A DNA stretch of 50,400 bases from Escherichia coli (GTDB taxonomy: Bacteria; Pseudomonadota; Gammaproteobacteria; Enterobacterales; Enterobacteriaceae). The notes beneath the pieces are model-generated. The model was not told the origin of the DNA and searched no databases. It saw nothing but the letters and a program-made list of their open reading frames with translations. Where the stretch lies: assembly GCF_003334335.1 (NCBI RefSeq), contig NZ_QOWQ01000034.1; one strand, written 5' to 3'. Below, in pieces: positions 24,230-50,400 of the stretch. Made by a program: the position numbers and the translations under genes. Positions within the stretch are counted from its first letter, which is position 1. The number at the start of each line of letters is the position of its first letter.

Positions 24230-25153
24230 TTAACGCGTTCGCTGCGAAAGCACCTGCTGCTTATCCAGCTTTTGCACCAGCGGCTGCACCACTTTATCCC
24301 CATGCTGACCAAAGTATTGATACAGCGTATCGGACGCACTTTTGGTCAGCACCATAATCTCAATGCGCCGGTTGCCCGCGCTTTGCGGATTTTTGGAATC
24401 CAGCAGCATCTGGTCCGCCATTGCGCTTACCTGCATCACTTTATCTTCCGGCATTCCGGCCTCTTCCAGCACCCGACGAGCCGAAAGCGCGCGGTCACCC
24501 GAAAGGTTCCAGTTGTTGTAGATATTGTTTTTGTAGGCCATCGCATCGGTATGCCCGGTAATAATAATTTTATTATCGAGCGAGTCGAACACTGGCGCGA
24601 GCTCCACCAGCAGCGTTTTAAAGAACGGCATAATCTTCGCGCTGCCGCGTTCAAACATATTGCGGTTCTGGTCGTCTTTAATCAGCACGCGTAATCCCTG
24701 GGGAACAATCTCCATCTCCAGATTCGCTTCCATATGCGCATCACGGGCAATGGTGTTGATACTGGTTGCCAGCTCACCAAGCTCGGTGGCGGATTTCTTC
24801 TTCAGCAGCGCCGTTTTCTCATTCACATCACGCGCTTTTTTCTCCGTCTCTTCCGGCACCGCCACGGTGGCAGGTTTTGGCGGATGAGACGGGCTGATTT
24901 TATTTAACGGCGACAGCCCACCACCGTTAAAAATCGACTGCCCGTGCAGCGCGGCGATAATGCTTTCACGCTCGGATTTACTGACGCTGTTGACAATCCA
25001 CAGCGTCATAAACAGCGCCATCATTGCCAAAGTAAAGTCGGCGAACGCCACCTTCCACGCCCCGCCGTGGTGCCCGGCATGATTCTTTTTGATCTGCCGC
25101 CGGACGATGGTGGTTTTTGCCCCACGATCGCGGCGGTTACCCGTCTTTCTCAT
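24230..25153 (-). CDS. lafU: Lateral flagellar motor stator protein, MotB-like
   Basis: ORF 24230-25186; start set at ATG 25153; TM helix plus C-terminal OmpA-like domain. Confidence 0.85.
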   Translation of the reverse strand: MRKTGNRRDRGAKTTIVRRQIKKNHAGHHGGAWKVAFADFTLAMMALFMTLWIVNSVSKSERESIIAALHGQSIFNGGGLSPLNKISPSHPPKPATVAVPEETEKKARDVNEKTALLKKKSATELGELATSINTIARDAHMEANLEMEIVPQGLRVLIKDDQNRNMFERGSAKIMPFFKTLLVELAPVFDSLDNKIIITGHTDAMAYKNNIYNNWNLSGDRALSARRVLEEAGMPEDKVMQVSAMADQMLLDSKNPQSAGNRRIEIMVLTKSASDTLYQYFGQHGDKVVQPLVQKLDKQQVLSQRTR

Positions 25154-25155
25154 GC

Positions 25156-26019
25156 TTATTCTTGCTCCAGCATCGCATTCACCCACGCGTCGAGGTTGGC
25201 GAAGGTCGGTTTGGACGCCAGATGCAGTAGCTTACGCCCGGCGTCCACCGCCAGCAGCGTCGGTTTGCCGCCTGCCTGCGCCACCAGCACGGTACGCACG
25301 CATTCCAGCAAAGAATGTTCTGCCCGCGCCTGTTGTTCCATGGCGTTGGCGAGTGGGTCCATCAGGCAGTAGCAGATAAAGACGCCTAAAAATGTCCCCA
25401 CCAGCGCTGCCGCCACTTTCAGGCCAATCAGGGCGATAGAGCCGTCAATCGACTGCATGGTGATGATGATGCCCAACACCGCCGCACAAATGCCAAACCC
25501 CGGCATCGCTTCGGCGGTACGTTGCAGCGAGCGCGACGGCGTTAGCAGCGACTCTTCCGCGGTGTCCAGTTCCTGATCGAGAATGCCTTCCAGTTCATGG
25601 GCGTCGATTTTACCCATCGCCATCAGGCGAAAGTTATCGGCAATAAAGGTCACCAGCCGCTTCTGGGTTAACACCAGCGGGTATTTCTGGAAAATGGTGC
25701 TCTCTTCCGGTTGCTCAATATGTTGATCCAGCATGCGCAGACCACCGTTTTGCACCATTTCGAGTAACTCATACAGGCACATTAATAGCTGGCGCTGAAA
25801 CTCCGGCCCGAGCTGTTTTTTACTGATTACGCCTTTAATTTGATGGGCAATCTCTTTCAGCACATGTTTCGGGTTACCAATAATCATCGCCCCGAAACCG
25901 GCACCCAAAATAATGATCATTTCCGCCGGTTGCCAGATAGCCACTAATTGCCCGCCCGCTTCAAAATAACCGCCAAATACGCAGCCGAGCACCACCAGTA
26001 AACCTAATATTTTTTGCAT
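25156..26019 (-). CDS. lafT: Lateral flagellar motor stator protein, MotA-like
   Basis: 287 aa, multi-pass membrane protein immediately upstream of the MotB-like gene. Confidence 0.85.
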   Translation of the reverse strand: MQKILGLLVVLGCVFGGYFEAGGQLVAIWQPAEMIIILGAGFGAMIIGNPKHVLKEIAHQIKGVISKKQLGPEFQRQLLMCLYELLEMVQNGGLRMLDQHIEQPEESTIFQKYPLVLTQKRLVTFIADNFRLMAMGKIDAHELEGILDQELDTAEESLLTPSRSLQRTAEAMPGFGICAAVLGIIITMQSIDGSIALIGLKVAAALVGTFLGVFICYCLMDPLANAMEQQARAEHSLLECVRTVLVAQAGGKPTLLAVDAGRKLLHLASKPTFANLDAWVNAMLEQE

Positions 26020-26031
26020 GATTTCTTCACT

Positions 26032-26748
26032 TTAATTCGGATAGACAAAATCACGAATTTTCTGCGCGATCTGTTTATTCAGTTGACAAATTCGGGCCTC
26101 GGTTAGCCCTAATACCAGCGCAATCTCTTTGAGATTCATCTCATGCTGGTAATACATGGAGAGGATCAGTTGCTCTTTTTCGCTTAATTGTGAAAGCGCC
26201 TGTTGCAGCATTTGCTGGGTGACAAACTGATCTTCCAGCTCCCTGCCAGCAAGCAGAATGCCAGGCCCTTCGCCGTTCAGCAGTTCGTCCAGGCTGGCGA
26301 GCGTTTCCGCCCCTTCCAGTTGCTGATATTCGAGATAATCTTCATGCGAGATCCCTTCCACGGCCAGTTCTGACCACTCCGGTTCGTGCCCCAGTTTTTT
26401 GCGCGTTTCGCGAATCAGATCTTTCATCTGATGATATTTCTGTCGCAGCTGGCGCGGTCGCCAGTCGAGAGCGCGCAGCTCATCCAGGATCGCGCCGCGA
26501 ATACGGTGCACGGCATAGCCCGCAAAACCTTCGTCCGGCAGCCCGTAGCGACGGATGGCATTAAGCAGCCCCATTAACGCCGTTTGTTCCATATCCTGAC
26601 GATCAATAATGCAATTACACTGCGGGGCAAGTTGCCGCACCACTTTACGCACCAACGGTAAATAGGCCTGCAAGTAGTGGCTCTCCTGCTGCGGGGTTAA
26701 TACCGGCGCGGCAGCAAATTCTTCCGACTCGAATACATCCTGTAGCAT
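26032..26748 (-). CDS. lafS: Flagellar sigma factor (FliA/sigma28-like) of the lateral system
   Basis: 238 aa with sigma-70 family regions 2 and 4. Confidence 0.85.
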   Translation of the reverse strand: MLQDVFESEEFAAAPVLTPQQESHYLQAYLPLVRKVVRQLAPQCNCIIDRQDMEQTALMGLLNAIRRYGLPDEGFAGYAVHRIRGAILDELRALDWRPRQLRQKYHQMKDLIRETRKKLGHEPEWSELAVEGISHEDYLEYQQLEGAETLASLDELLNGEGPGILLAGRELEDQFVTQQMLQQALSQLSEKEQLILSMYYQHEMNLKEIALVLGLTEARICQLNKQIAQKIRDFVYPN

Positions 26749-26767
26749 ATTTATATCCGCCTGGTGA

Positions 26768-49082: not shown

Positions 49083-49084
49083 GG

Positions 49085-49519
49085 CTACTCCGCTAATTTG
49101 TGCCGCAGCCAGCACTGCACGGCGATGTCGTCCACCGCTTTTTGCGCTTTCGCCGTGGCGCTTTCTTGTTGCTCGCGGCGTTTGTCGTCCAGCGTCAGGG
49201 CGACTACTTTCTCTTCGCACGCCGCCGCCGTGAGGTTTTTCTGCATTCGCGTGGCTTTGATATTGGCCAGCGTTTTTTCCTGCTCCTGCCAGGCGATTAC
49301 CTTGCGCAGGGTGCCTTTGTAGCCGCTGACGTTTTTCAGCGATTCCACCGACACCGCCGCACCCGCAGATGTTTTCTCGACAAGGTAGCCTAACGCCTTG
49401 ATATTGTTGTCATAAGCCGCGCAAATCTGTTTTTGCTTTGCCAGCTCGACGGTTTTGTCTTTGACCGATTTATCCCGCAGGCGCTGCAACTGCGCCAGGG
49501 TGTCGATGATTTGTCGCAT
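49085..49519 (-). CDS. lfiJ: FliJ-like flagellar export protein
   Basis: ORF 49085-49546; start at ATG 49519 (MRQIIDTLAQLQRLRDK), 144 aa; overlaps end of fliI-like gene. Confidence 0.75.
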   Translation of the reverse strand: MRQIIDTLAQLQRLRDKSVKDKTVELAKQKQICAAYDNNIKALGYLVEKTSAGAAVSVESLKNVSGYKGTLRKVIAWQEQEKTLANIKATRMQKNLTAAACEEKVVALTLDDKRREQQESATAKAQKAVDDIAVQCWLRHKLAE

Positions 49520-49521
49520 AG

Positions 49522-50323
49522 TTACTGTTCTGCCTTTTTGGCACAAGGAAAGAGGATTTGCAGGCGGCTTTGCACCAGTTCGAGGGAGGCGGGTTCGCGC
49601 ATCTCCTGGCGCAAAAATCGCTCAATGGCCGGAAACATTTTCACCGCTTTGTCGACGCTGGCGTCGGCACCTGCCACATAGCCGCCGAGCGGGATCAGAG
49701 GTTTGATCTCCATATAGGCGGCATAGTTTTGCTTTAACGCGCGGGCGGATTGCTGATGTTCCAGGCTGGTGACCTGGTTCATGCAGCGGCTGATCGACTG
49801 GCCGATATCAATGGCCGGATAGTGCCCCGCTTCCGCCAGTTTGCGGGTTAATACGATATGCCCGTCCAGCACCGCGCGCGCAGTCGACAATCGGATCTTG
49901 CTGGTCGTCACCTTCCGCCAGCACGGTGTAGATGGCGGTCATCGATCCCGCGCTTTCGCTGTTGCCTGCGCTTTCGACCAGTTTGGGGATCATGCCGAAT
50001 GCCGATGGCGGATAACCTTTGGTGGCGGGCGGTTCGCCGAGCGAGAGGGCGATTTCCCGCTGCGCCATCGCGTAGCGGGTCAGGGAATCCACCAGCAGTA
50101 AGACGTGATGCCCGCGGTCGCGAAACCAGGCGGCGATGGAGTGGCACAGTTCGGTGGCTTTCAGACGCATCAGCGGCGATTCATCGGCAGGCGCGACGAC
50201 GACGATAGACTTTGCCAGCCCGTCCGCGCCCAGCGAGTGGTCGATAAACTCTTTCACTTCGCGCCCGCGTTCCCCAATCAGCCCAACCACCACGATATCG
50301 GCTTTGGTCTGGCGGGGGATCAT
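49522..50323 (-). pseudogene. lfiI: Flagellum-specific export ATPase FliI-like, disrupted (frameshift plus upstream stops)
   Basis: Two overlapping minus-strand ORFs (49808-50323 and 49522-49911) both match FliI; frame change in CGCGCGCGC tract at 49873-49881; stops in all three minus frames in 50324-50400. Confidence 0.75.
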
Positions 50324-50348
50324 CCCATAAGCGCTAACTTAAGGGTTG
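50324..50348 (-). repeat. 25-bp sequence CAACCCTTAAGTTAGCGCTTATGGG, copy 2 (inverted relative to copy 1 at 55-79)
   Basis: Read directly; abuts the point where the FliI-like reading frame is interrupted. Confidence 0.8.
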
Positions 50349-50400
50349 AACCATCTGAAGAATGCGACGCCTCGGTGCCTCGTTAAGACGATGCCTCGCG

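Follow-up and report, generated by a model that had tools for sequence, protein, structure and literature searches.

Introduction

Lateral flagellar systems of the laf type are experimentally functional for swarming in Vibrio parahaemolyticus and Aeromonas hydrophila. There, a dedicated second set of flagellar genes, with no chemotaxis genes in the cluster, provides a LafA-type flagellin and proton-type LafTU stators, and expression follows a hierarchy in which LafK and sigma-54 are followed by LafS, a sigma-28 factor. A secondary, lateral flagellar system of this kind, termed Flag-2, was reportedly first described by Ren et al. in 2005 in enteroaggregative Escherichia coli 042. The canonical gene order of Flag-2, its division into clusters and the gene names used herein are those of De Maayer et al. 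(2020; PMC6993521), who recorded the locus in 24 of the 100 E. coli strains that they surveyed and described the disruption of its genes by transposases. The E. coli loci are without motY and maf-5 (PMC3032704, PMC4637896), and, in contrast to their counterparts in Vibrio and Aeromonas, none has ever been demonstrated to produce flagella.

In this report, we describe a 50,400-nucleotide stretch of E. coli DNA (contig NZ_QOWQ01000034.1 of assembly GCF_003334335.1; hereafter, the window) that contains such a locus next to dinB. Positions 24230-50326 are the dinB-proximal two-thirds (26 kb) of the known E. coli Flag-2 locus, and we consider it very probable that this copy is a recently inactivated remnant, unable to build lateral flagella efficiently. 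The locus shares with the Vibrio and Aeromonas systems the second flagellar set, the LafA-type flagellin, the proton-type stators and the lack of chemotaxis genes in the cluster. Flag-2 as a type is already known; what the window adds is one combination of lesions, both in the export-ATPase gene lfiI, and nothing categorically new.

Identity and organization of the locus

We listed the open reading frames (ORFs) of the window, computed its composition and compared it by megablast with 5426 complete E. coli genomes. The flagellar cluster begins with the stop codon of lafU at 24230, 70 bp from dinB (23104-24159, minus strand), and reaches 50326; the final 74 bases (50327-50400) come from one end of an insertion sequence (IS), IS186. 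A lateral, Flag-2-type cluster running from dinB to the window edge had been proposed in an earlier note made from the sequence alone, and comparison with E. coli FORC_081, with 042 and with NCBIfam models bears this proposal out, down to the exact starting base. FORC_081 is 99.97% identical to the window across positions 12869-50326 (11 substitutions and one 2-bp indel in 37.5 kb), and the RefSeq annotation of its matching stretch yields an identical gene list from lafU to fliI.

Outward from dinB, the window contains cluster 3, cluster 2, variable region 1 and then lfiJ and lfiI, the last two genes of cluster 1. All 25 genes of lafWZABCDEFSTU (24230-33917) and lfgNMABCDEFGHIJKL (33934-44889) are intact and stand in the canonical order. 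Indeed, every one of the 29 ORFs from lafU to lfiJ is open, full length and collinear with 042, with no frameshift or premature stop. When the Flag-2 proteins of 042 are placed on the window by tblastn, those from LafU to LfiJ all map collinearly at 93-100% amino-acid identity, save for the frameshifted 042 LfgC. The genomic position agrees as well: the cluster occupies the site between dinB and the yafL/rayT side, where K-12 bears its lfhA'-lafU' scar. The far boundary of Flag-2 falls outside the window; the near-identical FORC_081 and strain 300709 both have it. By our count, 1280 of the 5426 genomes (~24%) carry Flag-2.

The gene inventory of the earlier note was right for the stators LafTU, the sigma factor LafS, the FliK-, FliL-, FliT-, FliS- and FliD-like proteins (LafE, LafF, LafD, LafC and LafB, respectively), LafA, LafZ, lfgB-L and lfgAMN. 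What it took for the start of an export operon at the window edge, however, is the 3' end of lfiEFGHIJ (minus strand): from cluster 1, the window holds only lfiJ and the 3' 60% of lfiI, which IS186 interrupts at the edge. Variable region 1 (lafV, a GT2 glycosyltransferase gene and a tagD-like gene), before lfiJ, went unmentioned. The note's observation is thus confirmed and its interpretation supported in part, with two corrections, the edge label and a missed lesion in lfiI.

The GC content, judged by eye in the note to exceed that of the flank, does so when computed: 55.1% in the Flag-2 region versus 50.2% between thrW and dinB, with coding GC at third codon positions (GC3) of 0.678 versus 0.537. 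The paoABCD aldehyde oxidoreductase genes elsewhere in the window (7568-12371; ~60% GC) are as GC-rich as Flag-2. High GC by itself therefore does not mark Flag-2 as foreign.

Relationship to the primary flagellar system

That the cluster might belong to the primary (Flag-1) flagellar regulon, or duplicate it, is a reading to which we give virtually no credence. The only point that speaks for it is the presence of common flagellar protein families. The K-12 primary proteins FlgB-FlgL match the window at just 25-51% amino-acid identity by tblastn. For the products of lfgB-lfgJ, identity is 33-51% to K-12 FlgB-J and 98-99.6% to 042, the frameshifted 042 lfgC excepted; the products of lfgA, lfgM and lfgN are 94.6-95.9% identical to those of 042. 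Collinear DNA similarity to the primary regulon is absent, there being only short coding stretches at 68-75% and repetitive extragenic palindromic (REP) repeats. The proteins also differ in build: LfgJ is a 99-aa rod-binding protein without a muramidase domain, versus 313 aa for FlgJ, and LfgK, at 458 aa, is ~90 aa shorter than the K-12 FlgK of 547 aa. Further, LafA and LafU match lateral-specific NCBIfam models. In the case of LafA, the match to NF033376 covers the full length (1-304) and is well above the cutoff of 440 bits, whereas the FliC and FljB models score far under their cutoffs, which sets LafA apart from FliC. Finally, the locus lies at the dinB site of the K-12 Flag-2 scar. Identity with the primary regulon was accordingly rejected on the K-12 Flg searches, the 042 mapping and the NCBIfam models. 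The earlier note had singled out a match to the primary regulon as the outcome incompatible with its proposal; no such match was found, and the Flag-2 reading stands.

Two lesions in lfiI

The first lesion is a 2-bp deletion at 49873, inside a CGCGCGCG tract, which reduces (CG)5 to (CG)4 (49866-49873), as by slippage, relative to FORC_081, 042 and nearly all other genomes. The frame shifts after ~codon 327 and meets a stop 22 codons later. A tblastn search with LfiI gives two matches that differ in frame, one for residues 178-328 and one for residues 324-445, and the C-terminal piece matches positions 327-433 only of the FliI model. Among the 1278 genomes with that lfiI stretch, two share the frameshift (210221272 and OkiPb01694); neither has the IS, and one is annotated as “frameshifted”.

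The second lesion is the IS itself. Collinearity with FORC_081, with 042 and with every uninterrupted allele stops at 50326, and the 74 bases beyond it occur at 8421 places in 2144 genomes, with a median of 3 places per carrying genome. The same junction is found in TUM14664 only (one of the 5426 genomes), without the frameshift. The element in TUM14664 is 1338 bp long, its inverted ends measure 23 bp and its target duplication 10 bp (GTGATCATCC), and its transposase, WP_001300563.1, is an “IS4-like element IS421 family transposase” in RefSeq. The inserted element is IS186 (IS4 family; “IS421 family” in RefSeq). This identification comes through the TUM14664 element, the end of which is identical to the 74 bp in the window; the transposase gene lies beyond the window. 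Both lfiI lesions together are found in none of the 5426 complete genomes.

The insertion point resembles the described hot spots of this element, whose target motif is GGGG(N6/N7)CCCC (Lee et al. 2016, PMC5009759). The uninterrupted lfiI site, GGGT-GATCAT-CCCC, fits this target, and the insertion point in the window falls in GGG(T/G)-GATCAT-CCCC. Unlike those hot-spot insertions, the window displays the first 74 bp of the element only, and the target copy adjoining the IS is GGGG-GATCAT-CC. The difference is a T-to-G change at 50317 (L002 4920), 9 bp from the IS186 end, which makes a perfect GGGG(N6)CCCC and replaces Thr with Pro in LfiI; all uninterrupted alleles that we compared read GGGT. 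This change may be a pre-existing single-nucleotide polymorphism (SNP) that perfected the target. Past position 50400, IS186 would be expected to continue for ~1264 bp and to be followed by a duplicate G(T/G)GATCATCC, 530 bp of 5' lfiI sequence and the remainder of cluster 1. TUM14664 lacks the T-to-G change; its IS186 occupies the identical base in the identical orientation, and its background shows 54 differences in 5 kb. The hot spot may have been struck independently in the two strains.

Both lesions might be artefacts of sequencing or assembly, namely a miscalled (CG)n tract and an IS186 misjoin at a repeat. The deletion does lie in the CGCGCGCG tract, IS186 is multicopy and just 74 bp of it are visible. 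Against this, the IS junction is base-exact at a site that fits the published target motif, an independent complete genome (TUM14664) has the identical junction with a proper 10-bp target duplication, and two other complete genomes share the 2-bp deletion. We therefore hold an artefactual origin to be highly improbable.

The earlier note had expected the lesion of this locus to differ from the lfgC frameshift of 042. That frameshift is real (RefSeq; PMC3032704), and lfgC is intact in the window; the lesion itself was overlooked, although both the lfiI frameshift and the IS186 junction at 50326/50327 lie within the window.

Consequences for flagellar assembly

We infer the working of an intact locus from the lateral systems of Vibrio and Aeromonas, together with the motifs and parts found in the window. 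The sigma-54 activator LafK, whose gene is outside the window, would turn on the hook-basal-body operons. Completion of the hook would be followed by export of the anti-sigma factor LfgM from the cell, which would free LafS (sigma-28) for transcription of the flagellin gene lafA and of the proton stator genes lafTU. The subunits of rod, hook and filament would leave through a type III export apparatus reserved for this system and driven by an LfiHIJ ATPase complex. The sigma-54 motif upstream of lfgB, which is a motif match only, is consistent with such a LafK hierarchy, lafK itself being outside the window.

Because of the frameshift and the IS186 insertion, the window does not encode the intact export apparatus that a functional system of the Vibrio or Aeromonas type possesses. 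The insertion is probably also polar on lfiJ and the tagD-like gene. With LfiI removed and this probable polarity, assembly of lateral flagella in the window strain should be abolished or severely reduced.

Several points weigh against regarding the locus as an inactivated remnant. The part of cluster 1 past the IS (lfiEFGH, lafK, lfiMNPQR and lfhBA) is outside the window, so that this reading rests on the visible part. FliI is not absolutely essential in Salmonella, where fliHI deletions keep some weak export driven by the proton-motive force. The 2-bp change, being within a dinucleotide repeat, might be a sequencing error, though two complete genomes share the deletion. A motif scan upstream of lafA yielded no convincing sigma-28 promoter; a weak sigma-28-like TTAAGTTT-N11-GTCGTTTT occurs there, and a good -35-like TAAAGTTT occurs upstream of lfgM. 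EC958 does not express LafA (PMC4637896), and Flag-2 expression is likewise unproven in strains W and Crooks (PMC3032704). More generally, since no E. coli Flag-2 locus has been shown to make flagella, the word “inactivated” presupposes an activity undemonstrated in the species.

It is conceivable that the locus is wholly or partly functional and that the lesions are immaterial, with export proceeding without LfiI by means of the proton-motive force, or with the primary FliI cross-complementing the loss. Apart from lfiI, all 29 ORFs are unbroken and show strong purifying selection, and the residual export of the Salmonella mutants points the same way. However, IS186 parts the Walker A portion of lfiI from the rest of the gene, it probably lowers expression of lfiJ, without which export is not efficient, and one gene has been struck by two independent lesions. 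We know of no report of cross-complementation of LfiI. Further, in EC958 an intact lfgC does not suffice, and Flag-2 is still not expressed (PMC4637896). A functional locus is thus distinctly improbable, and we retain the view that the window carries an inactivated one.

Comparison with K-12 and other strains

K-12 MG1655 keeps only lfhA and lafU beside dinB, both as pseudogenes, in agreement with the fragments that the earlier note had named. K-12 positions 250059-256000 are 100.000% identical to window positions 24998-19057, and the K-12 deletion scar is at window 24998/24999, within lafU, where the K-12 sequence passes over to lfhA at an imperfect direct repeat of 12 bp (CTGTTGACAATC / CTGATGATCATC). 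This complete identity up to the scar indicates that the window strain is a very close K-12 relative retaining what K-12 deleted. The window is therefore a clean example of the region that K-12 lost, in a close relative.

The Flag-2 locus of 042 has the same site at dinB, the same gene order and the same orientation, with DNA identity of 94-97% and shared proteins at 93-100%. Its variable region 1 carries cargo of the same type (lafV, GT2 and tagD-like), which matches the cargo described for flagellin modification (PMC6993521). The two loci differ in their damage, lfgC being frameshifted in 042 and lfiI broken in the window. They differ also in a RelE/ParE-helix-turn-helix toxin-antitoxin pair between lafW and lafZ, which is missing from the window, and in REP content in the gaps at 30508-30597, at 41645-41790 and between lfgJ and lfgK.

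FORC_081, C1 and ATCC 8739 (Crooks), which are phylogroup-A-like, have the flank shared with K-12. Their lfiI alleles set them apart from the window, with its (CG)n frameshift and IS186: the gene is intact in C1 and ATCC 8739 (LfiI of 445 aa in both), and FORC_081 has a private Q45* stop.

Age of the damage and its pattern in the population

The lfiI damage looks recent and strain-specific, given that lfiI is intact in the nearest relative, that the genes bear the mark of purifying selection and that most sampled carriers are free of lesions. C1, the nearest relative, matches window 24230-49000 at ~100% and differs over 45400-50326 by 5 substitutions and the 2-bp indel. The Nei-Gojobori dN/dS between the window and 042 is 0.058 (25 Flag-2 genes, 19 kb; 142 nonsynonymous versus 663 synonymous differences), comparable in order with the 0.016 of dinB. 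For a survey of lesions, we took eight genomes at even steps along the ranking of the 1280 carriers. Five were without a lesion; each of the other three had one, namely a frameshift in lafT, a frameshift in lfiF or a deletion across lfiP-lfiQ that is not flagged. The premise of the earlier note that an E. coli Flag-2 locus must carry an inactivating lesion is thus not general. Rather, Flag-2 appears to be kept by selection across E. coli and to be lost sporadically through lineage-specific hits, of which the window is one case.

An alternative is that lfiI is a preferred target for Flag-2 shutdown in E. coli lineages, perhaps under selection for silencing an organelle that is costly or immunogenic, or through reversible switching of the (CG)n tract. 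Three kinds of lfiI lesion do occur on closely related backgrounds, namely Q45* in FORC_081, the slippage-prone (CG)5 tract in three genomes including the window and the IS186 hot spot in two genomes. In the evenly spaced sample of eight carriers, however, no lfiI lesion was seen, and disproportionate targeting of lfiI was rejected on this count; since the search was made with lfiI, the lfiI cases are biased by ascertainment. We consider preferential targeting improbable. Were it true, the dN/dS of 0.058 would mean a real, still undiscovered natural function of Flag-2. The “internal stop” of FORC_081 was also considered as a common lesion and rejected; it is the private Q45*, lies beyond the window and was found by exact match in one of 785 genomes.

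Individual carriers have peculiarities of their own. In JNE21-009, a type II restriction-modification pair is inserted between lfgA and lfgM (L013 20926-23643); in TH9F11, a 197-bp deletion fuses lfiP and removes lfiQ and is not flagged as a pseudogene (L016 33793-34623). The lafT frameshift belongs to CFSAN027350 (L014 2255-3119) and the lfiF frameshift to MS8320 (L018 30644-32291).

Features of the locus

The coordinates of the annotated features are collected in Table 1. The products of lafF, lafE, lafD, lafC and lafB are 94-100% identical to those of 042, and their names follow PMC6993521, as does that of lafW, whose product newer RefSeq annotation labels “flagellar hook-associated protein”. 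LafZ combines a winged-helix Trans_reg_C domain with one hydrophobic, transmembrane-like segment at ~residues 142-162. At 42.9% GC and a GC3 of 0.448, versus ~0.68 for the remainder of Flag-2, the composition of lafZ suggests a different origin, or different constraints on a membrane regulator. The gap between lafW and lafZ is 58 bp in the window and holds the toxin-antitoxin pair in JNE21-009, as in 042.

Table 1. Annotated features of the Flag-2 region of the window, ordered by position
Feature	Position	Strand	Description
lafU	24230..25153	-	MotB-like stator, 307 aa; NCBIfam NF005273 578.6 bits (cutoff 383, equivalog); 98.4% aa identity to 042
lafT	25156..26019	-	MotA-like stator, 287 aa; TIGR03818 375.5 bits (cutoff 303.8); 99.7% identity to 042
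lafS	26032..26748	-	sigma-28/FliA-type sigma factor, 238 aa; NF009091 447.4 bits (cutoff 339)
lafF	26768-27235	-	FliL-like; intact ORF; FliL model under cutoff
lafE	27243-28304	-	FliK-like; intact ORF; YscP-type hits under cutoff in lafF-lafB block
lafD	28301-28612	-	FliT-like, by literature; intact ORF
lafC	28617-29009	-	FliS; passes NCBIfam FliS model
lafB	29032-30348	-	FliD cap; intact ORF; FliD model under cutoff
sigma-54-like promoter	30380..30395	-	TGGCACGCCTTTTGCC, 1 mismatch, 32-47 bp upstream of lafB; motif scan, consensus match only
terminator-like hairpin	30484-30507	-	follows lafA
REP-type element	30552-30594	-	Rfam ES036 44.6 bits
lafA	30639..31553	-	lateral flagellin, 304 aa; NF033376 lat_flg_LafA_1 667.8 bits; 99.7% identity to 042 LafA
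lafZ	32039..32881	+	ToxR/CadC-like membrane-anchored regulator, 280 aa; Pfam Trans_reg_C residues 25-97, E 3.6e-13
lafW	32940..33917	-	putative hook-associated protein, 325 aa; no NCBIfam hit; 96.6% identity to 042 orthologue
lfgL	33934-34863	-	hook-filament junction protein; TIGR02550 196 bits, above cutoff
lfgK	34878-36254	-	hook-filament junction protein; TIGR02492 347 bits, above cutoff
REP-type repeat	36391..36468	-	in lfgJ-lfgK gap; Rfam naRNA4 83.9 bits
lfgJ	36558-36857	-	rod-binding domain only
lfgI	36857-37957	-	intact ORF
lfgH	37972-38637	-	intact ORF
lfgG	38841-39626	-	intact ORF
lfgF	39705-40442	-	intact ORF
lfgE	40442-41644	-	intact ORF
lfgD	41788-42501	-	intact ORF
lfgC	42501-42932	-	intact in window, 143 aa
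lfgB	42935-43270	-	intact ORF
sigma-54 consensus	43307..43322	-	TGGCACGGCGATTGCT, 0 mismatches, 37-52 bp upstream of lfgB; motif scan only
lfgA	43352-44089	+	TIGR03170 above cutoff
lfgM	44170-44448	+	anti-sigma-28; TIGR03824 above cutoff
lfgN	44461-44889	+	chaperone; matched by no NCBIfam model
variable region 1	45017..49082		flagellin modification; lafV, GT2 and tagD-like genes
lafV	45017-45946	+	weakly FliB-like; FliB model 43 bits, below cutoff
GT2 glycosyltransferase	46125-48569	+	814 aa; Pfam GT2 E 2.4e-17; weak TagF-like C-terminus, E 0.011
tagD-like cytidylyltransferase	48687-49082	-	TagD model 115 bits, below cutoff
lfiJ	49085..49519	-	FliJ-like, 144 aa, intact, downstream of broken lfiI; TIGR02473 59.3 bits (cutoff 50.45)
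lfiI pseudogene fragment	49522..50326	-	codons ~178-445 of 445-aa FliI-type export ATPase; 2-bp deletion and IS186
IS186 end	50327..50400		74 bp, starts CATAAGCGCTAACTTAAGGGTTG; inserted in lfiI after ~codon 177, just past GSGVGKS Walker A box

When both strands were scanned, the motif upstream of lfgB proved to be the sole perfect sigma-54 match in the 26 kb; a motif with one mismatch also lies upstream of lafV. Further REP-type palindromes occur in Flag-2 intergenic gaps at ~39660-39695, ~41689-41726 and ~48625-48664 (Rfam ES036/naRNA4), and the Rfam scan returned nothing beyond REP-derived families and a tRNA in the region. Owing to these palindromes, a query with the locus matched a median of 38 places per genome. 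REP copy number varies between strains: 042 is without ~90 bp in the lafA-lafB gap (30508-30597) and ~125 bp in the lfgD-lfgE gap (41663-41789), and the lfgJ-lfgK gap, at 303 bp in the window versus 421 bp in PEC1009, is 118 bp shorter than in most relatives. A REP transposase gene, rayT, adjoins the far end of Flag-2 in relatives.

Flanking region

At its start, the window lies within the operon for the E. coli common pilus (ecp), where EcpD (3324-4967) matches NF047911 with 1016.8 bits. Between ykgJ and yagU, a full-length match to the Rfam non-coding RNA IS009 is present at 6331-6530 on the minus strand (202 bits; gathering score 117). Before the flagellar cluster, the order of genes, per the RefSeq annotation of FORC_081, is thrW, proAB, phoE, crl, frsA, gpt, pepD, remnants of prfH and rtcB, yafPON and dinB. 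No island adjoins the tRNA-Thr(CGT) gene thrW (12887-12962, minus strand): paoD, a LysR fragment, thrW and proA follow one another directly (12372-12962). This unoccupied arrangement is shared by 1679 of the 5426 genomes. FORC_081 has an integrase at the thrW site, and its divergence from the window is at 12868/12869; K-12 carries the CP4-6 prophage there. Only the rtcB and prfH remnants are left between pepD and yafP (20855-21590), as in the K-12 ykfJ/prfH pseudogenes, whereas 042 has intact rtcB and prfH and two further genes.

Conclusions

Beyond correct annotation, the importance of the finding is small, as it is one more strain-specific way of breaking Flag-2. C1 and 300709 would be better test subjects than the window strain, as no lesion is seen in the annotated stretches that we examined (all of Flag-2 in 300709; lafU-lfiG in C1). 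Purifying selection on the locus is strong and most sampled copies are apparently intact, and none has been shown to work; there is probably an undiscovered condition under which E. coli puts the system to use.

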